Shown: in pieces, positions 1 to 16,021 of the stretch | How the letters are laid out: every line of letters begins with the position of its first letter | Position numbering within the stretch: the first letter of the stretch is position 1 | Origin: an uncultured virus (IMG/VR IMGVR_UViG_3300042559_001567) | Taxonomy: Duplodnaviria; Heunggongvirae; Uroviricota; Caudoviricetes | DNA: 64,000 bases | IMG/VR virus record: IMGVR_UViG_3300042559_001567 | Location: 1-64,000 of that record | Reading direction: 5' to 3' (one strand) | Made by a program: the position numbers and the translations under genes | The notes under the pieces: generated by a model | Databases searched by the model: none | What the model was told of the DNA's origin: nothing | What the model saw: only the letters and a program-made list of their open reading frames with translations

Positions 1-228
1 GTGGCAGATGGATTTTTATCAATACCTGGTGTTGGTGAAAATATTGATTCAGAATTATTAAGAAACGTATGTTCAAATTGTATCTATCATAGTTTAGATT
101 CGGCGGCATTATGGGCTACCCCTGCTGGAGTTGGTATTGCAATCGGAACTGCAGTAGCACCTATTATAGCAGATTTGATATGTACTAGAACTTGTCCTAA
201 TGGATTCAGTAAAGCATTGGGTGCGTAA
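1..228 (+). CDS. 3' end of a hypothetical Cys-containing protein with a hydrophobic segment (probably truncated by window start)
   Basis: Open frame from base 1 to TAA at 226-228; CSNC and CTRTC pairs flank a GVGIAIGTAVA hydrophobic stretch. Confidence 0.6.
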   Translation: MADGFLSIPGVGENIDSELLRNVCSNCIYHSLDSAALWATPAGVGIAIGTAVAPIIADLICTRTCPNGFSKALGA

Positions 229-266
229 TATTAATAAAATAAACTAAAAAACTAAAAACAAATACA

Positions 267-578
267 ATGTCAGAAGAAGTAGAACAATCAGAAGGAACTT
301 GGTCGGGTTTAAAAAAGACAATAATTGGGGTTGCAGGAACATTAGTGACCGCGGCGGGAGTATGGTTATCAACACTTTTAGGTGGTGGTGATAAAGCAGA
401 ACCGGCACCACAACAAGCGGCACCAGTAATAAACATTACAAATTCACAAACTCAACAACAATCGGCGGGTGGTGGTAAGACTGTAATTATTAAAGAAAAA
501 GAAACAGTTAAAGAAAAACCAGCTCCTGTAAAAAAGAAAGAAGGTGATGAGTTTAAAGAAGAGGCTCCTAAATGGTAA
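267..578 (+). CDS. Single-pass membrane protein, hypothetical
   Basis: N-terminal TM helix (TIIGVAGTLVTAAGVWLSTLL), then a Q/P-rich linker and charged tail; A-rich leader before ATG. Confidence 0.75.
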   Translation: MSEEVEQSEGTWSGLKKTIIGVAGTLVTAAGVWLSTLLGGGDKAEPAPQQAAPVINITNSQTQQQSAGGGKTVIIKEKETVKEKPAPVKKKEGDEFKEEAPKW

Positions 579-587
579 AAATTTAAA

Positions 588-743
588 ATGGAACAGGGAT
601 TAAGTTTTATAGCGGTAATCGTATTATGTATGATAGCTATGTTTGTATTTAATTCCCAATCGATGTTTTTAACATTTTTTATTGGGGGTTGTAGTTATTT
701 ATTAATAAGAGGTAGAAAAAAGGGATGGTCTTGGAAAAGATAA
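588..743 (+). CDS. Small 51-aa two-TM membrane protein (not in ORF track)
   Basis: Manual translation MEQGLSFIAVIVLCMIAMFVFNSQSMFLTFFIGGCSYLLIRGRKKGWSWKR; fills the gap between neighbours. Confidence 0.65.
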   Translation: MEQGLSFIAVIVLCMIAMFVFNSQSMFLTFFIGGCSYLLIRGRKKGWSWKR

Positions 744-757
744 AAAATAATAATAAT

Positions 758-1003
758 ATGAATAATATAAAATACTACATACTAAGATATTGGGTTTCTA
801 TAATTTTTTTAGGATTAGCGATCTATTTTTACGAACCAATACAATCAATAACACATTGTTCACCAAACACATTAAGTAGTGATACTCCTAAAACCATTTT
901 GGGTTTGGGTGAAATGACTTTAATGTGGATACTAATGGCAATAGCTCACGGTGCTAATTCCTGTTATTGTGATATAAAATCTCTTTTAAAAAAAAATAAA
1001 TAA
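758..1003 (+). CDS. Small two-TM membrane protein
   Basis: Track ORF 725..1003; ATG at 758 preferred because it avoids overlap with 588..743; two hydrophobic segments. Confidence 0.65.
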   Translation: MNNIKYYILRYWVSIIFLGLAIYFYEPIQSITHCSPNTLSSDTPKTILGLGEMTLMWILMAIAHGANSCYCDIKSLLKKNK

Positions 1004-1005
1004 AA

Positions 1006-1635
1006 ATGGCAGAAAACAAACAACCACCAAGTGGTTTTAAAGATTTATTAAGTAATATGATGGCCAGAAGATGGTACATCACCGCATTGGTATTGGGTGG
1101 ATTCATGTTTATTATAGGAGGAATGTTCTTTGCTATATTAAATAAATCAGCAATAGAAGGAGAATGGAAAGAACTTCTTCTATTATTGTTAGGAGCTTTC
1201 ATCGGTTCTTATGGTAAAATAATTGACTATTGGTTTAGTGATACCGATAAGGATAAGATGTTAGTTCAGAAAATGGATGAAGAAGATGGCACATCATTAA
1301 GCAATACCGCCGATTTACCACCAACTCCACCAAACAACACTCCAATCATACCAGAGGAGTTTCAAACCGCTATTGAAAACTCAAAAATAGAAAAGGTAAA
1401 TGATACGTTTGAACAAGTACCAACCGTTCAACCAAGAACTGGTGTTGAAGTTGATGAAGATGGTGATGGTACAATGGATGGTATAGATTTTGATGGTGAT
1501 GGTAAAATTGATATGTATTTTGCACATAGACAATGTGAACACGTTTGGGGTGACTTGGATGGTGACGGAATCGAGGAATGTTTAAAGTGTGGTAAAATAA
1601 AAGATGAAAATGCAGAAATGCATATGGAAGGATAA
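1006..1635 (+). CDS. Two-TM membrane protein with DxDGDG Ca-binding-type loops and a C-terminal Cys/His metal site
   Basis: Two TM helices; DEDGDG, DFDGDG and DLDGDG motifs; CEH...CLKC. Confidence 0.75.
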   Translation: MAENKQPPSGFKDLLSNMMARRWYITALVLGGFMFIIGGMFFAILNKSAIEGEWKELLLLLLGAFIGSYGKIIDYWFSDTDKDKMLVQKMDEEDGTSLSNTADLPPTPPNNTPIIPEEFQTAIENSKIEKVNDTFEQVPTVQPRTGVEVDEDGDGTMDGIDFDGDGKIDMYFAHRQCEHVWGDLDGDGIEECLKCGKIKDENAEMHMEG

Positions 1636-1660
1636 TAAATAAAATTAAAACAAGACAAAA

Positions 1661-1909
1661 ATGAATTTTAAACAATGGGTAATCGAACTCTTCAAAGATG
1701 AAAGAGGTTCAATATCGGTAAAACCGGTAATAGCAATGATAGGTGCTTTATTCCTATGTATAACGATGATTTTAAATTCGTTCTCTCATGCGGATTTTGC
1801 CCCGTCACCTGAATTGGTGAATGCAGTGATGTTAATCACGGGAATTGGAATGGGTGCTGACACTTTGGATAAGTTCTCTCACAAAAAGAAAGATGAGATG
1901 GAAGGTTAA
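1661..1909 (+). CDS. Small two-TM membrane protein (holin-like topology)
   Basis: 82 aa, two TM helices, charged C-terminus. Confidence 0.6.
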   Translation: MNFKQWVIELFKDERGSISVKPVIAMIGALFLCITMILNSFSHADFAPSPELVNAVMLITGIGMGADTLDKFSHKKKDEMEG

Positions 1910-1913
1910 TATT

Positions 1914-1938
1914 AAGGAGGGATAAAACCCTCCTTTTT
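1914..1938 (+). terminator. Intrinsic terminator
   Basis: AAGGAGGG-ataaaa-CCCTCCTT followed by T run. Confidence 0.75.
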
Positions 1939-1969
1939 AATAAAAATTTATTTAAAAAATTAATTAAAA

Positions 1970-2137
1970 ATGGAAGAAAATAATGAAATTGTTACTGTTA
2001 TTGAAGAAATAATTACGGAACCTGAAATTGTTTCAGTTGTTGAGGAAGTTATTCCTGAACCGGAAATTGTTGTTGTAGAAGAAATTATAAATAACACACC
2101 TAAAAGAAAATCCCACCCAAAAAATTGGAAGGGTTAA
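1970..2137 (+). CDS. 55-aa acidic low-complexity protein (not in ORF track)
   Basis: MEENNEIVTVIEEIITEPEIVSVVEEVIPEPEIVVVEEIINNTPKRKSHPKNWKG; three EIV...EE repeats. Confidence 0.55.
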   Translation: MEENNEIVTVIEEIITEPEIVSVVEEVIPEPEIVVVEEIINNTPKRKSHPKNWKG

Positions 2138-2147
2138 GATAAAATGT

Positions 2148-2870
2148 ATGAAAAAATTATTAACATTATTAAGCGTTTTTTTACTAAGCGTTGTTGTTGT
2201 TAACGGACAAACAATAGGTAAAACTAAAACAGAAGACTACAAGGCGGACTTCGAAAAGAAAAGAGATATTAGTGATTATATGGATTACGACGGTCCACAA
2301 ATTCCAATTCAAATATTAAAGGCAGGAATTTCTGATGAGATGTATGAAATGTATCCTGAACTAAAAGAAAAACGTGTTGGTTTGGGGGTTGCTAATATTT
2401 CAATGGAATATCTTGAAAACTTAAACAGATTCAAATTTACTGAGGATAAAACAGAAATTAAGAATCGTATGGTAAAGCAATTCCAAGCATCCCAATCTGG
2501 TATTTCCGAGAATAAATTAGATGGTCGTGGTAAAATAAATTTGGCAAAGTATTTTGTCACTATTGAGTGTTATGATTACTCGGTGTCGGAAGATGAAACC
2601 ATCAACCTTAAAAATGGTATACAAGACAATATGGTGACTCGTATAGGTCTTCAGGTTAGATTTACAGATGCTGAAACAGGTGTTGTATTTGGTGGATCGG
2701 GTTTAGGTGAGGCAACCACAAAAAGAGAGTTAACCCTTTTATCTGATGCAACTGTAGACCCAATAAAATTTAATCAATCAACAATTTCCATAGCAACTAA
2801 AAAGGCTTTAGATATTGCATGTGCTAACATCCTTGATAGAATGATTAAAAAAGGAATATTCACAAAATAG
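2148..2870 (+). CDS. CsgG/HfaB-like secreted protein (curli assembly/transport family fold)
   Basis: Sec signal peptide ending VNG|Q; pattern GLGVANI..EYL..LNRFKFTE, LAKYFV and GLQVRFTDAETG resembles the CsgG/TolB-N-like family; no lipobox Cys. Confidence 0.65.
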   Translation: MKKLLTLLSVFLLSVVVVNGQTIGKTKTEDYKADFEKKRDISDYMDYDGPQIPIQILKAGISDEMYEMYPELKEKRVGLGVANISMEYLENLNRFKFTEDKTEIKNRMVKQFQASQSGISENKLDGRGKINLAKYFVTIECYDYSVSEDETINLKNGIQDNMVTRIGLQVRFTDAETGVVFGGSGLGEATTKRELTLLSDATVDPIKFNQSTISIATKKALDIACANILDRMIKKGIFTK

Positions 2871-2893
2871 TTTAATTACATTAAGAATTATTT

Positions 2894-2922
2894 AAAAGGA
2901 GGTGTAATAACCTCCTTTTTTT
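2894..2922 (+). terminator. Intrinsic terminator
   Basis: AAAAGGAGGT-gtaata-ACCTCCTTTT followed by T run. Confidence 0.8.
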
Positions 2923-2947
2923 ATATTTATAATAAAAGAATAACCAT

Positions 2948-3781
2948 ATGAAAACGTTATTAATATTATTATTACTTATCCCAACTATCGTGTTAGGACA
3001 AGTCTCATCATGGAGAAGTAATCCACCTACACCTCAAAGGTCAACACCATCAATACAACCACCAACTCCACAAAGAAATGATGTTAGTAATTGGAGAAAT
3101 CAACCACCATCAAATGGATATGATAGACCTCTAAGAACAAGACCAGGTTCAAACATAATTGTAAGAGACCCATGGTTAATGAATAATTTTGGATGGGGAT
3201 GGAATAGATGGGATATGTGGGGAGCACCTGCATTTGGTTGGAACTTTTGGAACCCAGGCTTTTACTTAAACGATTGGGGTTATAGACAACCTGCAAGAGT
3301 GTATGTTTATGATAATGGAAAATTGGACACCATTAAAGGTAAGAGACCAATCGTCAGCTTTGGTATTCAGAAAACAGGTGGTAATCAGATTGGTGGATTT
3401 TTTACAATAGGGACTAAAGCATATTTTATTGCTGAATATAACTCAACATTTGAAAGAGATAATTCAACATTCTTTCCTTATGGTAATATAACACAAGTCG
3501 ATTTTCCAATGGTAAGTGATTTGATAGAACAAAGAAATTTCTATGTTGGTGTTGGTAAGAGGATTAAAAGAACGGGTATTCACCTTATGATTGGTAGTGT
3601 GACGGAAGATGTGAAGTGGAGAGGTAAAGATGATATTGGATATATTACTTTCCCAAAATATAAAGATAGATTCGCAACTGTTAAAGTTGGAATATTACAC
3701 GATTTCAAAAATATAACAATAAAGTATGACTATGACCCGGTAATTCGTAACGGTACCTTTGGTTTAGGTATCAATTTTTAA
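2948..3781 (+). CDS. Predicted outer-membrane beta-barrel protein with Pro-rich and Trp/Gly-rich N-terminal region
   Basis: Signal peptide VLG|Q; alternating beta-strand pattern; ends GTFGLGINF (terminal Phe, BAM-type signal). Confidence 0.7.
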   Translation: MKTLLILLLLIPTIVLGQVSSWRSNPPTPQRSTPSIQPPTPQRNDVSNWRNQPPSNGYDRPLRTRPGSNIIVRDPWLMNNFGWGWNRWDMWGAPAFGWNFWNPGFYLNDWGYRQPARVYVYDNGKLDTIKGKRPIVSFGIQKTGGNQIGGFFTIGTKAYFIAEYNSTFERDNSTFFPYGNITQVDFPMVSDLIEQRNFYVGVGKRIKRTGIHLMIGSVTEDVKWRGKDDIGYITFPKYKDRFATVKVGILHDFKNITIKYDYDPVIRNGTFGLGINF

Positions 3782-3782
3782 A

Positions 3783-5240
3783 ATGAAAAAATATATTATC
3801 TCTCTCCTAATATTGTTTTTTTGTGGTAAATCTTTTGGACAAACGTACACTCAAACATTTATTGATAAATGTAGTGGTGAAAAAAAGATAGCAACAACAA
3901 CCATCATAAATGGTAATGCTACTGTGTCTTTTTACAATCAAGTAAGAACATTTTCTCCTATGGAAGTACAAACGGGAGTTGTACAGACTTGGTTATTTAC
4001 AACTAAAGCAACATATGAGGCATTAACTTGTCCTGTAATTAATAATCCAATTGTTCAACAAACGGTAGCAAATGCGGCTGCACAAACCGCAAGTAATGCT
4101 GCAGCATCGGCAGCATCTGCAGCCGCTAGTTCTGCTGCAAGTGGTGCGGCAAGTAGTGCTGCATCATCATCGGCAAGTTCTGCTGCTAGTTCAAGTGCAA
4201 GTTCAGCTGCCGCAAGTTCCGCCGCGTCAACACCACCACCCACTACTCCACCACCAACAAGTAGTAGTTCATCAACACCTCCACCACCAAGTAGTGGAAG
4301 TTCATCATCTTCATCAAGTGGTTCGTCATCAAGTGGTGGATCATCCTCATCTTCTGAAACTAAAACAGAAACAAAAACCGAAACTAAATCGGAGACTAAG
4401 TCAGAATCAAAAACCGAAAGTAAATCTGAATCAAAAGAAGAATCTAAATCTGAAAGTAAATCCGAAGAAAAGAAAGAGGAATCTAAATCGGAAGAGAAAA
4501 AAGAAGAAAAGAAAGAGGAATCTAAAGAAGAAAAGAAGGAAGAGGAAAAGAAAAAAGAAGAGAAGAAAAAAGAAAAGGCGGTCGCAACAAATCCTATGTT
4601 ATTATCTTCTGATTTATCAACAATAGAATCACCTGACGGTAGATGGTTACAATCGGCCACTATTGGGGTATCTAAATCATCCTTGATGGGGGATAAAAGT
4701 TATTCCGCAAATACGGTTATTATGAGTGACCTAAAAACATTTATTGTTAGTGGTGGATACACTAAGATGGATTTCTCAGAAGGTAAATTAAAAGCAATAC
4801 ACTCATATTCTACCGCATTTGCTTATTTGAATGGGAACTACATGAATTTATTAGGTTATACATATATTAAACCAACACCAAAGCATGGTGTATTTGGTTA
4901 TAATTTAGGATTGATAAATTTATTTCTTAAAAATGAAAAAGATAACTATGATTATAACATGTCGTCATCGGTAGTCGCTTTTTGGACTAAACCATATCAA
5001 TATAGTAAAAAGTTGACGGTGTCTCCACAAATATTTACAATGTTTGCACCATTATCTTGGAACACTGTTGCAGGAACGTCCACCGTTAATCGACATATGG
5101 GATTCTTATTAGGTAGTTCGTTTGATTACAAGTTGAGTAAACGATTTGGGTTTAGTTTTAACTACAAATTGAGTGGAAACACATCTCCAGGTTCACCTTG
5201 GTTAAGTAATTTCTTAATAGGGTCAAGAATGGTACTATAA
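3783..5240 (+). CDS. Secreted protein: small Cys-pair N-domain, long Ala/Ser/Pro/Lys/Glu linker, C-terminal predicted beta-barrel
   Basis: Signal peptide SFG|Q; low-complexity linker ~4070-4580; amphipathic strands (FDYKLSKRFGFSFNY) in the last ~210 aa. Confidence 0.7.
   Translation: MKKYIISLLILFFCGKSFGQTYTQTFIDKCSGEKKIATTTIINGNATVSFYNQVRTFSPMEVQTGVVQTWLFTTKATYEALTCPVINNPIVQQTVANAAAQTASNAAASAASAAASSAASGAASSAASSSASSAASSSASSAAASSAASTPPPTTPPPTSSSSSTPPPPSSGSSSSSSSGSSSSGGSSSSSETKTETKTETKSETKSESKTESKSESKEESKSESKSEEKKEESKSEEKKEEKKEESKEEKKEEEKKKEEKKKEKAVATNPMLLSSDLSTIESPDGRWLQSATIGVSKSSLMGDKSYSANTVIMSDLKTFIVSGGYTKMDFSEGKLKAIHSYSTAFAYLNGNYMNLLGYTYIKPTPKHGVFGYNLGLINLFLKNEKDNYDYNMSSSVVAFWTKPYQYSKKLTVSPQIFTMFAPLSWNTVAGTSTVNRHMGFLLGSSFDYKLSKRFGFSFNYKLSGNTSPGSPWLSNFLIGSRMVL
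4070..4580 (+). repeat. Coding low-complexity repeats (SAA, SSS, KSE, KKEE blocks)
   Basis: Visible in DNA and translation; codons diversified. Confidence 0.85.
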
Positions 5241-5308
5241 AAAAAATCCCCGATGATTAAAACCAACGGGGATGTGACAAAAATGAAAATGTACCTCTCT
5301 CCTGATAC
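5239..5308 (-). ncRNA. Candidate ~70-nt small RNA (sRNA-1)
   Basis: Minus-strand TTGACA(5343-5338)-N17-TATAAT(5320-5315) upstream; ends in ATCCCCG/CGGGGAT hairpin plus U run; body complementary to the start region of gene 3783. Confidence 0.5.
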
Positions 5309-5310
5309 AA

Positions 5311-5661
5311 TTAAATTATAGACAATTCTTTTTTATTTGTCAATACTTCATATAAATTTTTTATTTCTGAACATTTTTCATAATCCTCAATACTTTCAAA
5401 ATACGGTAATACGTCTCTTGTTAAAACAATTGTGTCAGTTCTATTAAATTTAAACTCGGTATCCCATTCCAAACCTTGTATAATCGCTTGAATATAAAGT
5501 GTTAATACTCTTTTTTTATTGTCTTTGAAACCATAAAAAACCTCCAAAATATTTTCATAAATTGATTTTTTATTAATATCATAAAAATCAGTGAAATCTT
5601 CATATTTCCCCTTTATGTACATTTTTTTATATGGTGTTCTTGTTTTTTTTGTGTAAGCCAT
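5311..5661 (-). CDS. Hypothetical protein with C-terminal UVR (uvrB/uvrC)-like motif
   Basis: YFESIEDYEKCSEIKNL matches the EdYEkAa.ir pattern. Confidence 0.6.
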   Translation of the reverse strand: MAYTKKTRTPYKKMYIKGKYEDFTDFYDINKKSIYENILEVFYGFKDNKKRVLTLYIQAIIQGLEWDTEFKFNRTDTIVLTRDVLPYFESIEDYEKCSEIKNLYEVLTNKKELSII

Positions 5662-5712
5662 TGTCTAATATTTGGTTAGTGTAATATAAATAATTTTTTT
5701 TTAAAATAAAAA

Positions 5713-6198
5713 TTAATTTTCCTTACTTCTATCCCATTTTGCTTTTCTGGCTTCTGGAGAAAGTATCATTGGCTCGTCTATTGTGTGTTCAATTTTAACC
5801 CTAATACAGGTTTGGGGTAAACCACAGTTCATTAAATAATTATTAATATATCCCATCATATTAGCACTACCGATTGGATTTGCGGAATGAACATAAATTT
5901 GGGGAAGGGGTATCTTTTTGGACATACTTTCAGCCACTAAAAATTTACAACAATCATATCCTGTTTTTTCATTAACTATGTTGTCATAATTTAAAACATA
6001 ATTATTTTTTACATTTGTATAGTACTCAATCATAGACTCATCACCTAAATCATGGTCTAACGAAATAACATCAAAATTTTCTAACCCATATAATCTAATG
6101 GTAGAAACAAAATGTTCATAATTTCTTATAATAACCCAATCAGTTCCAATTGGTGTTCTAACGTCGTCTAAGTATAATCTTTTTTTCTCAGTTTTCAT
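5713..6198 (-). CDS. Cyclic-phosphate-processing receiver-like domain protein
   Basis: LYLDDVR, ISLDHDLG, TGYD and VHSANPIG motifs; overlaps the end of the RNA ligase gene. Confidence 0.8.
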   Translation of the reverse strand: MKTEKKRLYLDDVRTPIGTDWVIIRNYEHFVSTIRLYGLENFDVISLDHDLGDESMIEYYTNVKNNYVLNYDNIVNEKTGYDCCKFLVAESMSKKIPLPQIYVHSANPIGSANMMGYINNYLMNCGLPQTCIRVKIEHTIDEPMILSPEARKAKWDRSKEN

Positions 6199-7396
6199 CT
6201 TTCTTAAATGGTTTTGAATATTCTGGTTTAACTATTTTCCAAATTATGTCATCGACTTTTTCATTATTTCCATTCCACATTGCGAACATAATCGCATGTA
6301 AAACTTTTTGTTGTTTCATAACAAATTCGGCAAATTCTTTTTTAGATGGCTCAGGGCCCCTGTCATTAAATTTTCCATATCTAAAACCATCATGTAATTT
6401 ACCTGCACGTTCTCTTAGTTGAAAACAAGCATATCTTAAATCTCGAACAGTTTCTTTAACCCATTGATTAAATTCGTCCGGAACTTTTTCAAGTAGTTCA
6501 TCAAATGGTTTATTATCTTTCAAATATTCCCATATATCTCTATTTGATACGTTGGTTAAAATTTTGTGAAGTCTAACATATTCTTCTCCTTTAATTTTCA
6601 TACGGAAACCATTATTGAAACGAATGACATAACCTTCCTTGTCTTTAGATATTTCTTCTTTCAATAAGTCATATCCTTCGCCCCAAGTTTTGTACGTTGT
6701 TACAACTTCAAAACCTTGTTCTTGCATAAAAAATATTGAACTATTGGGTAACTCCTCACCACTATCGGTATCTATAACACCAAGAAGAACTAACTTTTCT
6801 TCATTACCATAATTAACAACGATACGATTTTCGGGATAAATAATCTCAAACAAATAGGTTCTTTTTTTACTTAAAGAACTTACATCATATTTGTTATCAA
6901 GAATTTCTTTTCCCTTAATTGCTTGTGGTGATGTGAATGACCCACGAGTTGCCATTATCCATTCACCCTTAGTCTTTGGTGTTGGTTCATAATATGAATT
7001 ATCATAATCAGGTAAGTTGTTCGGGTCAAAAAACCTTTCCATGCCCGTTTCGTAATTATTATTAAACCATATGTTGTATCTCCTTTCATCACTCAATTCG
7101 TATTCGTAATAAAAGAGAATACCTAAAGAACCATCCATTTTTTCATAGACAACATAATCTTCATTTGGGATGTCTTCTGATTTATGTTCTTCGTAGTTGA
7201 AGAATTTCTTAAACGGTCTTGCAACAATTTTTCCTTTTGAGTTGGTTACCAATCCACGACATTGCAAAGTAATCTCATCCCATAATCTTTCATACTGAAC
7301 TTTTGGTGAATAATTCCAAATAGTTAAATCAAGAGTTGGGTGAGTTTGTTTATGTAACAAACCATCAGTATGGTATTTCTGTAAAATTTCCAACAT
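6188..7396 (-). CDS. rnlA: RNA ligase, T4 Rnl1-like
   Basis: CRGLV..ARPFKKFFN, motif I EKMDGSLG, ATRGSF, FEII, EGYV, KIKGEEY. Confidence 0.9.
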   Translation of the reverse strand: MLEILQKYHTDGLLHKQTHPTLDLTIWNYSPKVQYERLWDEITLQCRGLVTNSKGKIVARPFKKFFNYEEHKSEDIPNEDYVVYEKMDGSLGILFYYEYELSDERRYNIWFNNNYETGMERFFDPNNLPDYDNSYYEPTPKTKGEWIMATRGSFTSPQAIKGKEILDNKYDVSSLSKKRTYLFEIIYPENRIVVNYGNEEKLVLLGVIDTDSGEELPNSSIFFMQEQGFEVVTTYKTWGEGYDLLKEEISKDKEGYVIRFNNGFRMKIKGEEYVRLHKILTNVSNRDIWEYLKDNKPFDELLEKVPDEFNQWVKETVRDLRYACFQLRERAGKLHDGFRYGKFNDRGPEPSKKEFAEFVMKQQKVLHAIMFAMWNGNNEKVDDIIWKIVKPEYSKPFKKDEN

Positions 7397-7641
7397 TATC
7401 TAATAGGTTTATAAAATCCAACATTGTAAGTCCATTTTAACCAATTAAAAGACAAGTACACCGCACATATTTTATTTTCAAGTAATGTTTTATGTGATTC
7501 TGGTTCACATGTTTCAAAATAGATATATGCAAAAGGTAATGGGTATACAGCCCATTGATTTTTAAATAAGTGTGAACTAAATTTCATTTTTGTTTTTTTT
7601 TGTGAGATTATTTTAAAATAAGATTCAATAAATTGACTCAT
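7396..7641 (-). CDS. Hypothetical protein
   Basis: 81-aa ORF abutting both neighbours in an operon. Confidence 0.6.
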   Translation of the reverse strand: MSQFIESYFKIISQKKTKMKFSSHLFKNQWAVYPLPFAYIYFETCEPESHKTLLENKICAVYLSFNWLKWTYNVGFYKPIR

Positions 7642-8070
7642 CTATAATTTAATTTCAAACCTATTCTTCATTTGTTGAAGTTTATCTTTTGGGACTCCGT
7701 GGATATTTTCATTACCATGCCTATTCTCTACAATTATTGTATGAACCCTATAATTGTACCTTTCAGCCATTTTAAAATATTCATCCATTTCCCACTCCTG
7801 TGTAAATGTATTTGCAACCACAATTCTCACTTTTTGTTGTCTCATTCTTTCGGAACATCTAAATTGACAATAATTGTGTGCTTCTTTTAATTTTGTTGGG
7901 TCGAAATTATATTCACCATTTTCATCCTCAAAAAAATCATCTGCAGACAATATTTCTTGTGGGTTGTTATTTGGTTGTTGTAATATAACATTGGCAAATG
8001 TTGTTTTACCCGAACCAGGAATACCTCTGAGAAGTATTAAATCGCCTTGTTTTTCTGTATTTGTATCCAT
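7642..8070 (-). CDS. Standalone polynucleotide-kinase-like P-loop kinase
   Basis: LILLRGIPGSGKTT, SADDFF, VANTF, HGVP motifs. Confidence 0.85.
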   Translation of the reverse strand: MDTNTEKQGDLILLRGIPGSGKTTFANVILQQPNNNPQEILSADDFFEDENGEYNFDPTKLKEAHNYCQFRCSERMRQQKVRIVVANTFTQEWEMDEYFKMAERYNYRVHTIIVENRHGNENIHGVPKDKLQQMKNRFEIKL

Positions 8071-8090
8071 TGGAGAGAGATTTAAAAATT

Positions 8091-8126
8091 AAAAATAAGG
8101 TCGGATTGGTTACCGACCCCAATTTT
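8091..8126 (-). terminator. Probable terminator after the lipoprotein gene
   Basis: GGTCGG-attggtta-CCGACC hairpin with A/T tracts on both sides. Confidence 0.6.
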
Positions 8127-8305
8127 TATTTTACGGATGAACCGTCTGCAGGAATTTGTGCAGTTGTTGAATCTGTCGCAGATACTGCGGCAGTGTCTAC
8201 TTGAACCGCAGTTGAGTCAGTTGTTTCAGTTGCGGTTGACCCTGAACCACATGCAGTTAGTGTAAGTGCTACACCAAGTGCTAAGATAAATGTATATTTT
8301 TTCAT
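8126..8305 (-). CDS. Small lipoprotein (59 aa)
   Basis: Start at ATG 8305; MKKYTFILALGVALTLTA|C lipobox; Thr/Ser/Asp/Ala-rich mature part. Confidence 0.8.
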   Translation of the reverse strand: MKKYTFILALGVALTLTACGSGSTATETTDSTAVQVDTAAVSATDSTTAQIPADGSSVK

Positions 8306-8350
8306 ATAATGTAAATATACGAAAATCCGTTGATAAAACCAAATTTTAAT

Positions 8351-8455
8351 AAAAAACCCCAACGAGATGTCGGGGTTTAAGGTCTTTGGGTGGGTTCAAC
8401 CCCACTTACTTATGAAAATAAAACGAAAAGGTAATCGACAAAGAGAACCTCCAAG
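8351..8455 (-). ncRNA. Candidate ~100-nt structured small RNA (sRNA-2)
   Basis: Minus-strand TTG-N19-TATATTTA and an overlapping TATTTATA (8465-8458) upstream; closing stem, GTGGG/CCCAC hairpin, AAACCCC/GGGGTTT terminator plus U run; no credible ORF. Confidence 0.5.
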
Positions 8456-8493
8456 AATATAAATATATATAACTTTAATAAAAAGTCAACTAT

Positions 8494-10512
8494 TTATAAC
8501 AATTTTTTTGAAATTGTTAATTTTTCATCTTTATATTTAAGAGTTATTGGTTCGTTTTCCTTTATATTTCCTCTTAGTATTTCTTCACTTAAAAAATCTT
8601 CACAAAGATTTTGAATGATTCGTTTTAAAGGACGAGCACCATATTCTTCTTGACTGTTTAATTCAAAAATTCTATTTGTAACGGTTTTATCAAAAGTTAC
8701 TAAGAAATTTTTATCTAACAATCTACTGTTTAATTTACCAACCTCTATTTGAATTATTTTCTTAAGAGTTTCTTCGTTAAGTGCATTGAATAATATTACG
8801 TCATCAATACGATTTAAAAATTCAGGATTGAATTGTTGTTTTAATGCCTTTTGTATCATTGATTTTCTTACCTCATACTTTTGAGTTTCGCTCGATGATG
8901 TATTAAAACCAACACCTCCACCAAATTCAGAAACTCTTTTAGCTCCTAAATTGGATGTCATGATAACCAAACAATTTGTGAAGTTTATTTTTCGACCAAA
9001 TGAATCTGTTAAATGTCCTTCATCTAAAATTTGTAATAATAGATTAAAAACGTCTTTATGTGCTTTTTCAATCTCATCAAATAAAATAACAGAGAATGGG
9101 TTGTTTTTAACCTTTTCAGTTAATTGACCACCTTCATCGTATCCAACGTAACCCGGAGGAGAACCGATTAATTTAGAAACATTGTGTCTATCCATAAACT
9201 CACTCATATCAACACGAATGATTTTTTCAGGGTCACCAAATAAAAGATTGGCTAATGATTTCGCTAAATGTGTTTTACCAACACCCGTAGATCCTAAAAA
9301 GATAAATGAACCTATAGGTTTATTTGCATCTTTGATTCCAACACGATTCCTTCTAATTGCTTTTGATATTGTTGTAATTGCTTCTTCTTGTCCAATTACT
9401 TTATCAGTCAATAAGGTTTCCATTTTTAACAGTTTTTCTGTTTCCTTACTATCAAGTTTAGTAATTGGTACACCAGTCATTTCGGAAACTATGGTATAAA
9501 CATCATCAACGGACACAGGAATTTTATTCCCCTTTTGTTTTTCTGACCATTTTACCTTTTCGTTTTCAAGTTTATCAAAAATTTTCTTTTCTTCATCTCT
9601 TAATTTTGCCGCTTGTTCATAATTTTGAGATTTAACAACTTGTATTTTTCTTTCTTTTATCTCATCAATCAATTTTTTTAATTTTTCAATTGATTCGGGT
9701 ACTCTACTCGATACTCTTTTTTCTGAACCTAATTCGTCTATTACATCAATCGCCTTATCAGGAAATTGTCTATCTGTAATGTATCTACCAGAAAGTTTAA
9801 CAATTGTTTCTATTACATTTTCCTCATAAGATACCCTATGAAATGTTTCATATGACTCTTTTAAATTTTTAAGAATCTCAACTGTTTCTGCCATCGTAGG
9901 TTCTTTCAAAATTACCTTCTGAAATCTTCTAACTAATGCGGAATCTTTTTCGATGTGTTTTTTAAATTCATCAAAAGTAGTTGCACCAATACATTGAATT
10001 TCACCACGAGCCAAAGCCGGTTTCATAATATTTGCAGCATCCATCGCACCACTCGCATTACCTGCACCCACCATTGTGTGTAATTCATCAATAAACACGA
10101 TTACATTTGGTGATTCTTGTAATTCGTTTAAAATTGCTTTAATACGTTCTTCAAATTGTCCACGATATTTTGTACCAGCAACAAGTGAAGTTAAATCTAA
10201 AGACATAATTCGCTTATCTAATAAATTTGTTGGACAATCTCCTTTAACAATCATTAAAGCAAGTTTTTCAACAAGTGCGGACTTACCAACACCGGCATCA
10301 CCAACAATAACCGCATTATTTTTCTTTTTACGTGAAAGAATTTGAGCTATTCTTTTCACTTCTTTATCCCTACCAACAACGGGATCAATTTTACCTTCTT
10401 CTGCGAGTTTAATTAAATCTCTTGAGAAGTTATCTAAAATTGGTGTGGTTGAACCTTTGCGTCCCTTTTTAGGGGTTGAGGTTGGTCCGTCCTCAAAGAA
10501 ATCTACTGCCAT
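8494..10512 (-). CDS. clpC: ClpC-type AAA+ ATPase lacking the N-terminal Clp-repeat domain
   Basis: LDNFSRDL..DPVVGR, Walker A GDAGVGKS and GSTGVGKT, VFIDELH, UVR-like M-domain QNYEQAAKLRD, GSPPGYVGY, GGGVGF loop, YGARPLKR. Confidence 0.92.
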   Translation of the reverse strand: MAVDFFEDGPTSTPKKGRKGSTTPILDNFSRDLIKLAEEGKIDPVVGRDKEVKRIAQILSRKKKNNAVIVGDAGVGKSALVEKLALMIVKGDCPTNLLDKRIMSLDLTSLVAGTKYRGQFEERIKAILNELQESPNVIVFIDELHTMVGAGNASGAMDAANIMKPALARGEIQCIGATTFDEFKKHIEKDSALVRRFQKVILKEPTMAETVEILKNLKESYETFHRVSYEENVIETIVKLSGRYITDRQFPDKAIDVIDELGSEKRVSSRVPESIEKLKKLIDEIKERKIQVVKSQNYEQAAKLRDEEKKIFDKLENEKVKWSEKQKGNKIPVSVDDVYTIVSEMTGVPITKLDSKETEKLLKMETLLTDKVIGQEEAITTISKAIRRNRVGIKDANKPIGSFIFLGSTGVGKTHLAKSLANLLFGDPEKIIRVDMSEFMDRHNVSKLIGSPPGYVGYDEGGQLTEKVKNNPFSVILFDEIEKAHKDVFNLLLQILDEGHLTDSFGRKINFTNCLVIMTSNLGAKRVSEFGGGVGFNTSSSETQKYEVRKSMIQKALKQQFNPEFLNRIDDVILFNALNEETLKKIIQIEVGKLNSRLLDKNFLVTFDKTVTNRIFELNSQEEYGARPLKRIIQNLCEDFLSEEILRGNIKENEPITLKYKDEKLTISKKLL

Positions 10513-10567
10513 GTGTTATTAAGTTTTGTTGGTACAAACATAACACATTTAATTCTAAAAAAAAAAT

Positions 10568-10627
10568 AAATGTCAAAATGTCTAAAAAAATGTCTAACCA
10601 ATGTCTAAATGTCAGTTTTAGACATTT
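10568..10627. promoter_or_regulatory. Array of AATGTC repeats (5 direct, 1 inverted) between divergent clpC and hsp20
   Basis: TGTC at 10571, 10579, 10591, 10602 and 10610; inverted GACATT at 10621. Confidence 0.6.
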
Positions 10628-10668
10628 GGTTTACAATTTGTAAAACATATGTTAAAAATATAAAAACT

Positions 10669-11025
10669 ATGATAACATTATTTAAAGACCCATTCTTCAC
10701 AGGATTTGATACTAACAGATTTTTATCTACTCCTGAAACTAACATTAGTAAAAGTGAAACTGAGTATTCGGTTTCGATAAGTGTACCTGGTTTAACCAAA
10801 GACGATTTAAAAATCTCAACAAAAGAAGGTATATTAAAAATCATTTACGAAAAAGAAGAAAGTGATAAAACACATCATTTTATTGGAAGTTTTGTAAAAT
10901 CTTATAATATACCTGACGATGTAAAGGAAAAAGACATTGTCGGTAAGGTTGAAAACGGAGTTCTTGAACTTACTTTACCTATTGATAGGAAAAAATCACT
11001 TGAAAGGTTAATTTCACTTAATTAA
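10669..11025 (+). CDS. Small heat-shock protein Hsp20/alpha-crystallin family
   Basis: VPGLTKDDLKI, F.KSYNIPDDV, ENGVLELTLP; ATG 10669 preferred. Confidence 0.9.
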   Translation: MITLFKDPFFTGFDTNRFLSTPETNISKSETEYSVSISVPGLTKDDLKISTKEGILKIIYEKEESDKTHHFIGSFVKSYNIPDDVKEKDIVGKVENGVLELTLPIDRKKSLERLISLN

Positions 11026-11029
11026 ATCT

Positions 11030-11052
11030 AACCCCCGTTATCGGGGGTTTTT
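11030..11052 (+). terminator. Intrinsic terminator
   Basis: AACCCCCG-ttat-CGGGGGTT followed by T run. Confidence 0.8.
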
Positions 11053-11098
11053 ATTTTGATATTTATTGTGTATATTATAGTACTAAATCAATTATATT

Positions 11099-11344
11099 AT
11101 GGCAATAATTTCAGAAACAATTAATGGAAAGATGATTGACGTTATTATCAATTCATCTAATTTAAAATCAGCTTCATTTAATACAGAAAATGAGGATTTG
11201 ACTGTCACTTTTAATAATGGTGCTATTTATGAGTATAATAAAGTTCCTTGGGCAAAGTTCACTAAGTTTAGACTTGCTGAATCACAAGGAAAATACTTCA
11301 ACGAGAATATCGCCAGAAGTCATAAGTACACAAAAAAAGGATGA
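11099..11344 (+). CDS. KTSC-domain protein
   Basis: SSNLKSASF..LTVTFNNGAIYEYNKVP..AESQGKYFN. Confidence 0.88.
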   Translation: MAIISETINGKMIDVIINSSNLKSASFNTENEDLTVTFNNGAIYEYNKVPWAKFTKFRLAESQGKYFNENIARSHKYTKKG

Positions 11345-12087
11345 GTTTATTTGAAGAACTGATTGAGGATAAAGACGAAGATAAAAAAATTATCAAGTCC
11401 TTTAAACCAAAGGATTCACTATCGGAACAAATTTTTGAAGGTTCTGATGGTGAGTTCTCTATGCGAGATGATATCAGAAAAAATTTATTAAAGATATCAA
11501 ATGACTTTATTGAAAGTCTTGGTATTGAGTTTTTTATTCATGACATAGTTCTTACAGGTTCTTTAGCTAACTACAATTGGTCAAACTATTCTGACGTGGA
11601 TTTACATGTTTTAATTGATTTTAAAGAGACTGATTACAATTTAGATTTACTAAAGGAGTTTTTTGATGCTAAGAAAAATGTGTGGAATGAAAAGCATAAT
11701 ATCACAATTAAAGGATATGATGTTGAATTATATGTTCAGGATATTGATGAAGAACATGTATCTTCAGGAGTATATTCCATTTTAAATGATAAATGGATTG
11801 TTGAACCAGATAAGGTTAAATCCAACATTGATGATAATATGATTCTTCAAAAATCCGAAGAATACATGAAAAAAATCGATTTACTCATTAAGAAGGAAGG
11901 ACCTATTGAATCGATTGAGGGGTTAAGGAAGAAGTTAAAAGAATTTAGACAAAGTGGTTTAGAATCCGGCGGAGAGTATTCTTATGAAAACTTAACCTTT
12001 AAATTACTTAGACGAAATGGGTATATTGAAAAATTATTAAAACTAAAAACAACACTTGTAGATAAGAAATTATCTATAACACAATAA
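11341..12087 (+). CDS. Pol-beta-superfamily nucleotidyltransferase
   Basis: LTGSLANYNWSNYSDVDLH (GS..DxD) and third carboxylate in DVELYVQD; ATGA overlap with KTSC. Confidence 0.8.
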   Translation: MSLFEELIEDKDEDKKIIKSFKPKDSLSEQIFEGSDGEFSMRDDIRKNLLKISNDFIESLGIEFFIHDIVLTGSLANYNWSNYSDVDLHVLIDFKETDYNLDLLKEFFDAKKNVWNEKHNITIKGYDVELYVQDIDEEHVSSGVYSILNDKWIVEPDKVKSNIDDNMILQKSEEYMKKIDLLIKKEGPIESIEGLRKKLKEFRQSGLESGGEYSYENLTFKLLRRNGYIEKLLKLKTTLVDKKLSITQ

Positions 12088-12157
12088 AGAACCTTATTTT
12101 TTTCCCTATATCAATGTATTTATAGGATAAGAATAAGCATATCTAACAATTAATAAA

Positions 12158-13165
12158 ATGGCAGATTTAAAACCACTTGGTAGTGAAAAACTTAACGGAG
12201 ATGACAAATTAAAGAGAATTCTCGAGTTAACCTACTACAACAATAACCAATCATCAACTAAAAAATCCGAAATAGTGAAGGAGTCAACTAATGGGGGTGT
12301 TTATGGTATCGTTAAAGAAAAAGACGGATACTATGTAAAAAGGGGATTAAACGAAAGTTCTCTTGACTACATTGGTGGTATGTTTATGAAAAATAAAAAT
12401 AAATTTTCGTCTTATGCTGAGGCATTTAAAAGATTAGACCTTTTAAAGGGTCAAGAAGATTTACAAGAAGCAACAAAATATGTTTTAAAGCAAACAAAAC
12501 CACAAGAAGAGTCTCCTTTAGCGGAACCTTCTATGGATGCACCTGCAGCACCCGTAGCACCTGACGCTGGTATGGGTGTTCCACCTGCGGCCGAAGAGCC
12601 AATGGGGGATGTACCAGCAGAAGAACCAATGGGTGAATTACCTCCATCAGGTGGTGAAGAAATGGGTGGTGAAGGGAAACGCTCAGATTATATGGCGGAA
12701 GCTCAGAAGTTTGCTGGTAAATTAGGTCAAGAACTAAGAGATTTACAGGATAAAATGGAAAGTGATGACATCAAATACATTTTAAACATGATTATTTCTG
12801 CTGTTGATTTGGATAAATTAGACGATGAAGATATTGAGGACATTGCTAAGAAATTTGAAAGAGAGGAAGAAGAGATGGGTGGAGAAGAACCAATTACAGA
12901 ACCATCTGCAGAAGATGAGGTACCTGCTGAAGAACCAGTAACTGGTGATGAGGACTTAGGTGAAACTATGGATTTATTAAATAGTTTTATAGAATCACCA
13001 ATTGGTGAGGAAGATACAAACGAATTAGATTTAAGTAAATTTGCTGACATTGAAGCAAGTGAGGGACAATCTTATGAGGACGATGTTCAAGAACTTGATT
13101 TAGACGAAATTAAAAACGATATTAATCAGGCAATTAGCGAAAAATTAAGTAAATACTTTAAATAA
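12158..13165 (+). CDS. Acidic hypothetical protein, probably head-associated
   Basis: TATTTATA upstream; acidic/Pro-rich; lies upstream of terminase. Confidence 0.65.
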   Translation: MADLKPLGSEKLNGDDKLKRILELTYYNNNQSSTKKSEIVKESTNGGVYGIVKEKDGYYVKRGLNESSLDYIGGMFMKNKNKFSSYAEAFKRLDLLKGQEDLQEATKYVLKQTKPQEESPLAEPSMDAPAAPVAPDAGMGVPPAAEEPMGDVPAEEPMGELPPSGGEEMGGEGKRSDYMAEAQKFAGKLGQELRDLQDKMESDDIKYILNMIISAVDLDKLDDEDIEDIAKKFEREEEEMGGEEPITEPSAEDEVPAEEPVTGDEDLGETMDLLNSFIESPIGEEDTNELDLSKFADIEASEGQSYEDDVQELDLDEIKNDINQAISEKLSKYFK

Positions 13166-13166
13166 A

Positions 13167-13568
13167 ATGCATCTTATCTATGTTAATGAAATAGGTTCTG
13201 ATTATAAAGGACAAAAACAGTACGAATTTATCTTTAGTAAAAGTACTGAAATTGACATGGATGAGTGGTTTATTATACCAGCATCCGCATCCTCACAACC
13301 TAAATCTCCAGAAATGGAATACGTTGATTTAGTTGGGTTATTAAAAAATACAGACTTACAATTAGAATTAGTTCAAGACTCCGATTATTTCGGAGTTATT
13401 GATGCTGTAGATGGGGTGGTTGCGATGGCTTGGGAAAAATTTGATATGGATTCGGATAGTGAAAGGTTAACCTTTAAATTTGGGGAGTCGATTGATAGTG
13501 TAACAAAAAAATTAAAAATAAGAAGTTATCTTCTTATAAAAGAGGAAATTAAATTCAAAGAAATATGA
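13167..13568 (+). CDS. Hypothetical protein
   Basis: 133-aa ORF in operon. Confidence 0.7.
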   Translation: MHLIYVNEIGSDYKGQKQYEFIFSKSTEIDMDEWFIIPASASSQPKSPEMEYVDLVGLLKNTDLQLELVQDSDYFGVIDAVDGVVAMAWEKFDMDSDSERLTFKFGESIDSVTKKLKIRSYLLIKEEIKFKEI

Positions 13569-14512
13569 AAAGGTCAGAATTAGTTGATAAATTAATCAAA
13601 GAAGGTATGTCAGAAAAGACATTAGTAAAATTTACTGATAAACAACTTAACAACTTAGCTGAAAGAATGATAGGTGAAGCTATCACAACTACCGCAGATG
13701 CATTATCTAAAAGTGCCGCATTACAAAATTTAGCAAAAAAACAAGACATTAAACTTGTTGGTGAAGAAGGAGAAGTTTCTGAAGAATTAAAAGGTAATCA
13801 AAAGAAATTAGATAAGAACCACAATGGTAAAATTGATGGTCAAGATTTTAAAATATTAAGAGGTCAGAAAAAAGAAGTTAAAGAGGGTAAGAAATGTGAT
13901 AGTTGTGGAGAATCTATAAAGGATTGTAAATGTGACCATACACATATGGATGAATCTAAAGAAATAAAAAAATGGATTAATACATTGGCGGAAGAAAGTT
14001 TTCATAGTTTTACATCAAAAAATGAAATTATGGAATTAATCAATGTTAAATTAAACGAATCAGAAGTACATGAGTACGGTCCAAATGTTAAAACTGGACA
14101 CAATGGTTTACCAGAATTTATGACATATGATGCAATTGTGAGTAATGGACCAAAAATTGCACCGAGTAAACCTAAAGTTGATCCAGGTACAAAACCTAAC
14201 AAACCTAAAACACCATTTCAACCTGGACCAAAGGTAAACCCTAATCCTAAAGCATTAAGTGAGGACGATTCTAAAATCACTCCAAGTAAACCTAAGCGTG
14301 ATAACCCTTACTTACCTGACAAACCTAAAACTCCATTCCAACCAAAATCAAAAGTAAATTCTAAATCGTTGGATGAGAACAACCCTAAAATTGCACCGAG
14401 TAAACCAAAGGTTAATCCTGGTACTAAACCAAATAAACCTAAAACTCCGTTTCAACCCGGACCTAAAGTTAATCCTAACCCTAAAGCAACAACTAAGGGA
14501 GATAAAAAATAA
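13565..14512 (+). CDS. Hypothetical head-associated protein with EF-hand-like loop, Cys cluster and three Pro/Lys repeats
   Basis: DKNHNGKIDGQD; CDSCG..CKC; PKIAPSKPKV.PGTKPNKPKTPFQPGPKVNPNPKA repeats. Confidence 0.7.
   Translation: MKRSELVDKLIKEGMSEKTLVKFTDKQLNNLAERMIGEAITTTADALSKSAALQNLAKKQDIKLVGEEGEVSEELKGNQKKLDKNHNGKIDGQDFKILRGQKKEVKEGKKCDSCGESIKDCKCDHTHMDESKEIKKWINTLAEESFHSFTSKNEIMELINVKLNESEVHEYGPNVKTGHNGLPEFMTYDAIVSNGPKIAPSKPKVDPGTKPNKPKTPFQPGPKVNPNPKALSEDDSKITPSKPKRDNPYLPDKPKTPFQPKSKVNSKSLDENNPKIAPSKPKVNPGTKPNKPKTPFQPGPKVNPNPKATTKGDKK
14140..14490 (+). repeat. Three tandem ~39-codon repeats (middle copy diverged)
   Basis: aaacctaaaac(a/t)cc(a/g)tt(t/c)caacc recurs at ~14201, ~14321 and ~14435. 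Confidence 0.8.
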
Positions 14513-14521
14513 TTTACAAAT

Positions 14522-16021
14522 ATGAAATTATCTAAGAAAATTTTGTTATCTTTAATTAACGAAAATTTAAGTGAGATGGCAATGGATTTTGATACTGCTG
14601 ATAGACCAAATCCCGATTTACAATCTAAATTGGCTTCAGGAGATACACCCTTAAAAAAAATACCTTTTCCTAAAACAGGAAACGAACCTAACCAAAATTT
14701 CCAAGAACTTTTGGCTTCCGAAAGATATAGACAAATTGTAAATAATGTTAGACAATATACAAACTATCAAGGTACATTAAACGGTACTGAAATGGGTCCA
14801 TTATTAACAATGATGTATACTGCACATAACAACATCATAAGACTTGAAAATACACATAAAGAGGCTTTAGAACAATTAGCAATTGAAATTGTAAAAGAAG
14901 AAATGGGTATTGGTGAGGAGGTTGAGTTTGATGCAAAAATCGTTGGTATGAATCAAATCGATACGAGTGATTTCAATAGAGAACAAGGTCCTGAACAAAA
15001 TCCAGATGAAGTTGATGTTGAAGATGAGGAAGACGATGAGGAAAATAACCAAGAACAACCTCAAGTTAATCCCGAAAATCAAGAAGTTGAAGAAGAATTA
15101 TATATTGATTTAAAACAATTAGATTTAGAGAGAGCGAAATTAACTTTAATTAATAGTATTATCCAAGGAGCGTCAAAAAGAGGTCATTATATGTACCAAC
15201 TTGTTGGTGAGAAACTTAGAGAAATTACAGGTTCTGATGAATTATATAATGACTATGGAGTGATGATGTCGGTTAACGATGCAAACTATTGGCAATTTAG
15301 TCCTGCAATGATTAAAGGGGCTTCTGATAGTGTTGCTGGTAAAGTTAAAATGGAATTTCCTGGTGATGATGAGACAGGTGAAACCGGTGATGAGGGAGAA
15401 GAAGGTGGTGAAGAACAAGAAGAACAAAAAGTTAAAGTGATTGCGAGAGGAATTAATTTTCCAGTTTTAATACATGAATTAATAAAAGGTGTTTTTGAAA
15501 TATTAGGTAGTCACGGACAACCGGGAGAATACACAAATCCACAAGATAGGGCAATGTATCAACAAGCTCAAAAGTTAGAAAGTACATTAGAAAAAGAAAT
15601 GTGGACATTACTTTTGGGACCTGCAATTTGGGATAGAATTAGAGGACAGTTTCCAGACGAGGTAATTTTGGAAAATGGTAAGCAATTACAGAATTACATG
15701 TTAATGCACATCTTCCAACTACCAGCTAAACAGTTCTTAGTTTTAATGAAAGAAGTTGTTAGTAATAGTGAAAACGGAAAACGTTTAATGACAGATTTAA
15801 TGGCGTCAATTCAACAAATGTTTAACCAACAAGATTATGAAGAATCTTTAAATCAATTTAACGACGAATTGGAAACAATGTCAGACGAGACTGAACCGGA
15901 CGATTTAAAAGATTTTATATTAGGTATACCAGGTATTTCGTTATCAAATGACGATGACGATGACGATGATGACGATTTTGACATTTATAAAGAATTGGGG
16001 TTAGACAGACCTAAAGATTAA
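14522..16021 (+). CDS. Hypothetical acidic protein upstream of terminase
   Basis: 499-aa ORF; FPVLIHELIKG segment. Confidence 0.75.
   Translation: MKLSKKILLSLINENLSEMAMDFDTADRPNPDLQSKLASGDTPLKKIPFPKTGNEPNQNFQELLASERYRQIVNNVRQYTNYQGTLNGTEMGPLLTMMYTAHNNIIRLENTHKEALEQLAIEIVKEEMGIGEEVEFDAKIVGMNQIDTSDFNREQGPEQNPDEVDVEDEEDDEENNQEQPQVNPENQEVEEELYIDLKQLDLERAKLTLINSIIQGASKRGHYMYQLVGEKLREITGSDELYNDYGVMMSVNDANYWQFSPAMIKGASDSVAGKVKMEFPGDDETGETGDEGEEGGEEQEEQKVKVIARGINFPVLIHELIKGVFEILGSHGQPGEYTNPQDRAMYQQAQKLESTLEKEMWTLLLGPAIWDRIRGQFPDEVILENGKQLQNYMLMHIFQLPAKQFLVLMKEVVSNSENGKRLMTDLMASIQQMFNQQDYEESLNQFNDELETMSDETEPDDLKDFILGIPGISLSNDDDDDDDDDFDIYKELGLDRPKD

Follow-up and report, generated by a model that had tools for sequence, protein, structure and literature searches.

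The window analysed here, a DNA stretch of 64 kb, is the first part of a 116-kb linear virus record that is 37% complete and has a genomic G+C content of 32%. It contains T4-like terminase, portal, protease, capsid, sheath and tube genes, and a bS21 gene (20468-20659, minus strand; PF01165, 48 bits) is located between the genes for the portal and the prohead protease. PMC9723584 describes a reverse-strand bS21 gene among terminase, portal, protease and capsid genes in freshwater phages whose predicted hosts are Bacteroidetes, and the window has the gene order given there for bS21-encoding Bacteroidetes phages. The predicted host phylum is Bacteroidetes, taken over from the prediction made in that source for phages with the same gene order.

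The putative RNA unit described here sits where a plus-strand run of genes whose starts are signal-peptide-like, the envelope cassette, meets a minus-strand run that codes for a kinase, an RNA ligase, cREC and a 116-aa ORF. The last cassette gene, gene 3783, is predicted to end in an outer-membrane beta-barrel: the C-terminal 216 aa of its product give a predicted beta-barrel with a pLDDT of 90.2 in an alignment-based model (33 in a single-sequence model), and the best folds for the barrel model are the NanC and FapF porins (E about 2e-6). The model and the fold search back the beta-barrel that a preliminary description of this DNA had assigned to the gene. A CsgG-like identity of gene 2148 found no support in Pfam, PHROGs or PDB sequence searches. 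Elsewhere in the window, a sigma-like protein (32943-33641, minus strand) has weak matches to Sigma70_r2 (below the cut-off) and to a PHROG late sigma family, and 13565-14512 and 44029-45192 encode internal-repeat proteins (a Pro/Lys-rich triplicate and a Thr-Pro-rich tandem array, respectively). The features at the junction of the two runs are as follows:

3783..5240, plus strand: last gene of the envelope cassette, with a signal-peptide-like start, a low-complexity linker and a predicted C-terminal beta-barrel
5311..5661, minus strand: 116-aa ORF, with the promoter-like element in its 3' end and TATTTAT 24 nt ahead of its start
5315..5343, minus strand: promoter-like element TTGACA-17-TATAAT, overlapping the final codons of the 116-aa ORF
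5239..5309, minus strand: predicted small RNA of about 70 nt, both ends predicted
5290..5309, minus strand: 5' hairpin in the consensus fold of relatives, with a purine loop (5296-5303) as first pairing block
5274..5289, minus strand: U-rich linker, second pairing block, complementary to the first bases behind the TATTTAT motif
5239..5273, minus strand: intrinsic-terminator-like hairpin and U tail, directly adjoining the opposite-strand stop codon of gene 3783

The predicted RNA unit and its conservation

The promoter-like element lies exactly where the preliminary description had placed it (5343-5315 on the minus strand, in the end of ORF 5311..5661), and is the sole 12/12 promoter match in positions 1-16000 and one of two in the 116-kb contig. 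Folding of positions 5230-5309 gives a z-score of -3.8, with none of 200 shuffles equally good. In the version of the RNA found in this window, the 5' half does not take the consensus 5' hairpin as its minimum-energy fold but a different pairing. The terminator hairpin is supported by folding and covariation; a simple terminator scan did not list it, probably because of an internal mismatch. The unit has no match in an annotated phage collection, and a search of the window against Rfam, with the C4 family covered, gave no match (best permissive match 22.5 bits versus a cut-off of 54).

Relatives were collected as 285 loci from viral sequence scans, and the unit was detected by a DNA profile. 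The full unit is present in 185 of these loci, in related phages of the bS21 type, and occurs in 64 distinct versions in which the promoter-like motif, the 5' hairpin, the U-rich linker and the terminator-like hairpin recur. TA...T is found at spacer 17 in 64 of 64 distinct versions, among them all 44 whose ORF has ended ahead of it. Because the -35 hexamer was part of the selection of versions, its conservation is partly circular; locus L108, which has the RNA and no TTGAC, was left out of the counts. In all 64 versions, at least 80 open codons lie upstream in frame with the -35 hexamer, and a stop codon follows 6-45 nt after its start. Among the matches listed, and judged by eye, the RNA is missing at 4 of 29 homologues of the 116-aa gene, and these four also lack TTGAC at the gene end. 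A short extra ORF on the strand of the RNA separates the RNA gene from the barrel gene in L049, L053, L059, L061, L063 and other loci; in these relatives, the RNA keeps its place at the end of the 116-aa gene.

The predicted structure covaries among relatives. In an alignment of 46 versions, 94.3% of cells are paired, and two-sided changes number 81, compared to 23 for shuffles and no more than 20 for slid controls. Most of the covariation is carried by the terminator hairpin (95.5% paired, two-sided changes in 8 of 10 pairs) and less by the 5' hairpin (92.4% of cells paired, two-sided changes in 2 of 6 pairs). The unit is single-copy in all four genomes searched, i.e. its own contig and three records of 251-336 kb. 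In GTDB bacterial genomes, 20 exact pattern matches scored at most 25.7 bits with the model R1, while true copies score 43-80; because of these far lower scores, we treat the matches as chance. As in trans-encoded small RNAs, the unit has a conserved promoter and terminator of its own at the level of sequence, L108 being without the -35. We are highly confident that the unit is a real, conserved element.

A second conserved non-coding unit is present at 8345-8470 (minus strand), after a ClpC-like gene, and consists of TATTTAT, about 80 near-constant nt and a terminator-like hairpin. It occurs in most distinct relatives among those listed from 80 loci, folds with a z-score of -2.6, and has no Rfam match and no convincing target among 112 starts. 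This unit is likely a late structured RNA.

Complementary sites in the envelope cassette

Over 10,575 bases, the window and locus L208 have identical sequence; the locus extends a further 9.7 kb upstream (20 kb in total). The sites that are complementary to the RNA are as follows:

L208:2924-2951 (about window position -6810, outside the contig), plus strand: cassette leader, main predicted target, best non-self duplex
3779..3812, plus strand: candidate secondary site in the barrel gene (start codon, codons 5-9), rank 3 of 113
1654..1665, plus strand: candidate secondary site, start of the 82-aa gene 1661, 12-mer at 1654
8072..8081, minus strand: possible weak kinase site, rank 4 of 113

With -30.6 kcal/mol, the duplex at L208:2924-2951 is the best non-self duplex on both strands of the 20 kb of L208. 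The site lies directly behind a TATTTAT motif, 74 nt ahead of the first cassette gene and about 12 kb from the RNA gene. TATTTAT, which is the T4 late promoter word read on the opposite strand, lies ahead of 31 of the 102 ORFs of the contig (examples: 16062, 17891, 27521, 43695 and 81209), including those for terminase and portal at a distance of 4 nt, and from this distribution we infer a late promoter and transcript start. At 10 of these ORFs, the motif is only 4-5 nt before the ATG, which suggests that many late mRNAs are nearly leaderless.

This arrangement recurs in relatives. More than 11 kb of upstream sequence is available for 44 loci, of which 28 are distinct. In a plus-strand scan of these 28, the leader site is among the top three upstream matches in 24 and ranks first in 22. 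The remaining four loci ended too early, and three leaders fetched afterwards gave duplexes of -37.5 to -38.9 (the L155 leader is not among them). The predicted main duplex spans 21-36 base pairs across relatives, contains bulges and loops, and in 24 of 24 cases starts at the TATTTAT motif, 2-5 nt into the extracted site, for coding and non-coding sites alike. The linker is complementary to the first bases after TATTTAT in 22 of the 24 lineages, while L195 and L206 pair via a differently worded linker. In 14 of the 24 lineages, the first gene is nearly leaderless and the main site is made up of its AUG and the codons that follow, and in the other 10 the site lies in a leader of 73-97 nt. The first cassette gene has two corresponding forms, one of 170-180 aa that is nearly leaderless and one of 214-217 aa behind the structured 73-97 nt leader, in which the AUG is often buried. 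L208 (leader) and L240 (coding site) are sister lineages with a support of 93. The leader of the L208 lineage (L208:2923-3000) reads like a decayed signal-peptide frame, and a tRNA-like cluster is visible by eye directly upstream of it (L208:2400-2640, minus strand). A conserved uORF in the leader was left aside, the two closest versions differing in frame (by eye).

The RNA and its main site change together. Over 24 lineages, the mean duplex energy is -32.7 for cognate and -21.2 for non-cognate combinations, and 255 of 268 swaps between RNAs and leaders favour the cognate pair, with 6 favouring the swap and 7 ties, in a comparison that favours cognate pairs because leaders were chosen partly by their duplex energy with the cognate RNA. 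The loop GGAGAG goes together with CTCTCC or CTCTCTC in the target, and the RNA tail TTGCC with TGGCAA at the head of the target, each with agreement in 24 of 24 lineages. On a seven-marker tree, these loop and tail traits have undergone four and two joint changes, and there are three and two independent pairs, respectively, all of which agree and which are too few for significance. As for trans-encoded small RNAs, complementarity to distant mRNA sites exceeds chance and co-varies, with independent contrasts too few for significance. For the RNA of this window, the cognate leader ranks 8th of 24, and its main duplex belongs to the weaker ones. Five of five genomes have a single copy of the target motif, and 34 loci that have the first gene and no detected RNA contain it in two cases only (by eye), both at a contig end. 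Judged by this complementarity, the RNA has its strongest and most conserved predicted partner not in gene 3783 but in the cassette mRNA, at the predicted 5' end, and it is very likely that the RNA pairs with the cassette mRNA.

The preliminary description had proposed the start of gene 3783 as the target on the basis of two ordered blocks, 3780-3789 matching 5280-5289 and 3800-3808 matching 5295-5303. Both blocks are present, and the site takes its place as a probable secondary one, while the predicted main target is the cassette leader outside the contig. When 113 start regions (112 ORF starts and the leader) are ranked by energy, the order is the leader, a lipoprotein-like gene at L208:8845 (-28.7), gene 3783 (-25.1), the kinase gene, a 550-aa gene and gene 1661. 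Cassette sites take the first three places, and the energies in first and third place are matched by 0 of 60 shuffled RNAs. In shuffles of the RNA for individual sites, the observed energy is reached by 0 of 1000 at gene 3783, 4 of 1000 at gene 1661 and 10 of 1000 at the kinase gene.

Both secondary sites follow the RNA across relatives, the tag in gene 3783 tracking the loop and the A-run of gene 1661 tracking the U-run. CTCTCTCCT occurs twice in the contig with both strands searched, in the RNA itself and at 3800. The barrel tag is present in 27 of 34 loci with a GGAGAG loop (the other 7 lack it), in 0 of 21 loci with other loops and in 0 of 36 without detected RNA. It uses CTC, which makes up 1.3% of Leu codons, and in L087 and L096, with the loop GGAGAGGUA, it reads Pro for Ser, restoring a perfect 9-mer. 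An independent-pair test for the barrel site gave 5-6 pairs with none opposite and is not significant. At gene 1661, the 12-mer at 1654 is confirmed; the longest Watson-Crick run averages 11.9 for cognate and 9.1 for non-cognate combinations over 31 loci, and the U-run of the RNA equals the A-run after GAC in 23 of the 24 loci in which both are 5 or 6 long. Two independent pairs at this gene, neither opposite, are not significant. These patterns of complementarity suggest that the RNA has genuine secondary targets at 3783 and 1661.

A pairing site just before the kinase ATG is present at 8081-8072 as previously noted and proved weak: the energy is matched by the 10 of 1000 shuffles mentioned above, and the tag is found in 14 of 35 versus 1 of 22 loci, with energies of -13.4 for cognate versus -12.1 for non-cognate combinations, in a comparison confounded by differing gene contexts. 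The kinase site is possible but weak as a predicted target. The cassette genes L208:8498, 2148 and 2948, used as controls, have no cognate bias in energy; on run length, control gene 2148 reaches 40 of 20000 permutations, which indicates that permutation values are inflated by kinship. The 550-aa gene was left as lineage-specific, with a cognate bias in energy (5 of 20000 permutations) and none in longest run (7934 of 20000). In the 336-kb relative, one further copy of the 9-mer TCTCTCTCC is matched to no gene start.

Mode of action and competing readings

Based on these data, we suggest a model in which transcription of the predicted RNA would initiate at the promoter within the 116-aa gene, at its 3' end, and stop at a terminator that the RNA shares with this gene. 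Its target would be the first ~30 bases of the cassette messenger, 9-13.5 kb away, together with start regions inside the cassette. If TATTTAT is a late promoter, the mRNA would begin with the main site. Pairing would be nucleated by the purine loop and the U-rich linker, extend to 21-36 base pairs at the main site and involve one or two blocks of 9-15 nt at gene 3783, gene 1661 and the lipoprotein-like gene. In the 14 of 24 relatives with a nearly leaderless first gene, the duplex would mask the AUG. By contrast, in the lineage of this phage, with its 74-nt leader and the AUG in a hairpin, the duplex would mask the single-stranded 5' end and may affect ribosome loading or mRNA decay; IstR-1/tisB provides an analogy for action via a 5' loading site. 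The outcome would be delayed or dampened synthesis of exported proteins that load the host export machinery. Because the RNA and its matches change together across relatives, we consider it rather likely that a trans-acting antisense RNA of about 70 nt acts as a brake on the envelope cassette.

Co-folding bears on the sign of this effect. For 13 of 14 near-leaderless lineages, the AUG region is predicted to become closed on binding. Where the first gene has a leader (10 lineages), the first 14 nt are closed, while access to the first AUG is nearly unchanged in 8 of them, this phage included (predicted access 0.27 without and 0.34 with the RNA). The small shift in these eight lineages speaks for a reading in which the pairing is real and its sign or direction is another, i.e. 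pairing serves to protect or activate the cassette mRNA, or this abundant mRNA, with its 5' end or by 3' run-through, is a sponge for an RNA that acts on host mRNAs. Run-through would fit the plus strand, which has no U-run directly after the terminator hairpin, so that transcription of the cassette could continue across the RNA gene. We nevertheless regard this reading as unlikely given the closure of the AUG region in the near-leaderless lineages, the overlap or direct contact of the secondary sites with start codons, and the changes of the loop along with the sites in the phage.

Repression by an antisense RNA must also be weighed against a feature that acts in DNA, namely an imperfect inverted repeat that brackets the cassette (a duplication relic whose copies recombination keeps similar, or inversion or protein-binding sites) and lies in an ordinary 3' UTR. 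G-U pairs have no bias toward the RNA strand (stronger in 12 of 24 lineages; 24 versus 22 G-U pairs), so that the G-U test does not separate RNA pairing from DNA repeats; moreover, the two copies flank the cassette in inverted orientation, and the unit is at the end of a long ORF in 64 of 64 versions. However, no inverted cassette was found, and the unit is on the minus strand in 150 of 151 cassette-oriented loci, the exception having been kept in the orientation of its record. The bulged and looped match, the constancy of spacer 17 in TA...T outside coding sequence and the retention of the 5' hairpin also argue against this explanation, as do the third and fourth sites inside the cassette, which co-vary with the RNA, including a length change and an amino-acid change. 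Overall, we find a DNA-level feature improbable.

The version put forward in the preliminary description, an early RNA with the start of gene 3783 as its main target and host mRNAs beginning with AUGAAAA as further targets, is in our view very improbable. The site at 3783 ranks third of 113 and tracks the loop, as this version would have it, but the tag is missing in 21 of 21 loci with another loop, while the leader site is kept in every loop type examined. Host targeting is rejected because the word UUUUCAU occurs in 3 of 64 RNA versions and, in the phage sequences on which this evaluation is based, ATGAAAA starts are barely favoured (mean -12.2 versus -11.2 kcal/mol for other starts; 13 of 15 rank 18th or lower of 112). 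Early timing is likewise unsupported: Bacteroidetes are reported to be without classical -35/-10 promoters (PMC7366714), pattern counts for a common "early" promoter class are not enriched in three large relatives (27, 19 and 14 versus 26, 20 and 28 in controls), and the 116-aa gene is preceded by TATTTAT, the putative late motif. With this motif ahead of the 116-aa gene, the RNA could also arise late as the 3' end of that mRNA.

That an ordinary terminator, a fortuitous promoter-like sequence and cheap A-rich matches coincide by chance would suit a genome with 32% G+C, in which promoter-like sites are not enriched (64 versus 77 in shuffles) and the A-rich 10-mer of the second block occurs four times in the contig, but conservation and co-variation largely refute this explanation and leave it a negligible probability. 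Separately, a CsrB/RsmZ-type, CsrA or anti-SD function of the loop was rejected because the loop is not invariant: GGAGAG is missing in 21 of 55 barrel-linked versions, and the loop varies with the target.

Relation to known RNAs and significance

The RNA unit resembles c4, DapZ/MicL, GibS and MicA/RybB in predicted action, pairing or layout, and it belongs to none of their families. MicA and RybB repress outer-membrane protein mRNAs. They share with the RNA described here the choice, predicted in the present case, of several envelope-protein mRNAs and of pairing at the start and first codons, the "five codon window" (PMC9486967); they differ in that the targets here are the phage's own, and Rfam revealed no sequence kinship. 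The likeness to MicF and MicA noted before holds for a predicted outer-membrane protein start being among the targets and does not extend to sequence homology in Rfam. Like c4 of P1/P7, the RNA is phage-encoded, predicted to act in trans, of similar size (about 70-77 nt) and predicted to pair through a loop with a phage mRNA near its translation start (PMC12197685). However, c4 serves temperate-phage immunity and targets the ant mRNA (PMC12197685), whereas here the predicted target is an exported-protein cassette of a T4-like phage, the main site is a predicted mRNA 5' end and there is no Rfam match.

DapZ, MicL and MicX have a promoter just upstream of a stop codon and a terminator in common with the mRNA, and MicL represses an envelope lipoprotein (PMC9438474). 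As far as sequence can tell, the RNA unit has the same layout, with a promoter in the 3' end of an ORF and a shared terminator. These three RNAs are, as described in that source, chromosomal RNAs of Proteobacteria with short seeds, whereas the unit is phage-borne with a main duplex of 21-36 bp plus short sites. GibS of Bacteroides thetaiotaomicron pairs in two blocks over start codons and comes from the same predicted host phylum, in which Shine-Dalgarno sequences are not used (PMC7366714); in contrast to the RNA unit, to which its sequence is unrelated, GibS is chromosomal and has metabolic targets (PMC7366714). SviR of the satellite PLE is also a trans-acting RNA and lowers translation of lytic-phage genes (bioRxiv 10.1101/2022.04.08.487710), but it is a satellite RNA directed against the helper, while here the phage would regulate itself.

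According to PMC12197685, most phage sRNAs that have been characterised belong to temperate phages and prophages of Proteobacteria. Literature searches showed no description of the RNA unit; the main text of PMC9723584 does not contain the terms "small RNA", "non-coding", "promoter" or "intergenic", and the supplementary tables of that paper as well as the table of 38 uncharacterised phage sRNAs in PMC12197685 could bear on novelty.

We tentatively suggest a broader reading, in which lytic jumbo phages of lake Bacteroidota run a cassette for remodelling the host envelope under their own multi-target small RNA. The RNA would cap the 5'-terminal ~30 nt of a late mRNA and read address tags in signal-peptide codons and start regions, and RNA and tags would be rewritten together from lineage to lineage, even at the cost of amino-acid changes. 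Tags would be gained and lost gene by gene, which may tune the stoichiometry or timing of a surface apparatus.

If true, a self-regulating multi-target small RNA would operate in widespread ~300-kb lake phages of Bacteroidota, a phylum without Shine-Dalgarno pairing. Natural compensatory variants exist for each site, and reporter tests can therefore be designed directly. Finally, the choice of targets would show which cassette genes the phage needs to restrain and may thus provide a lead on the function of the cassette.
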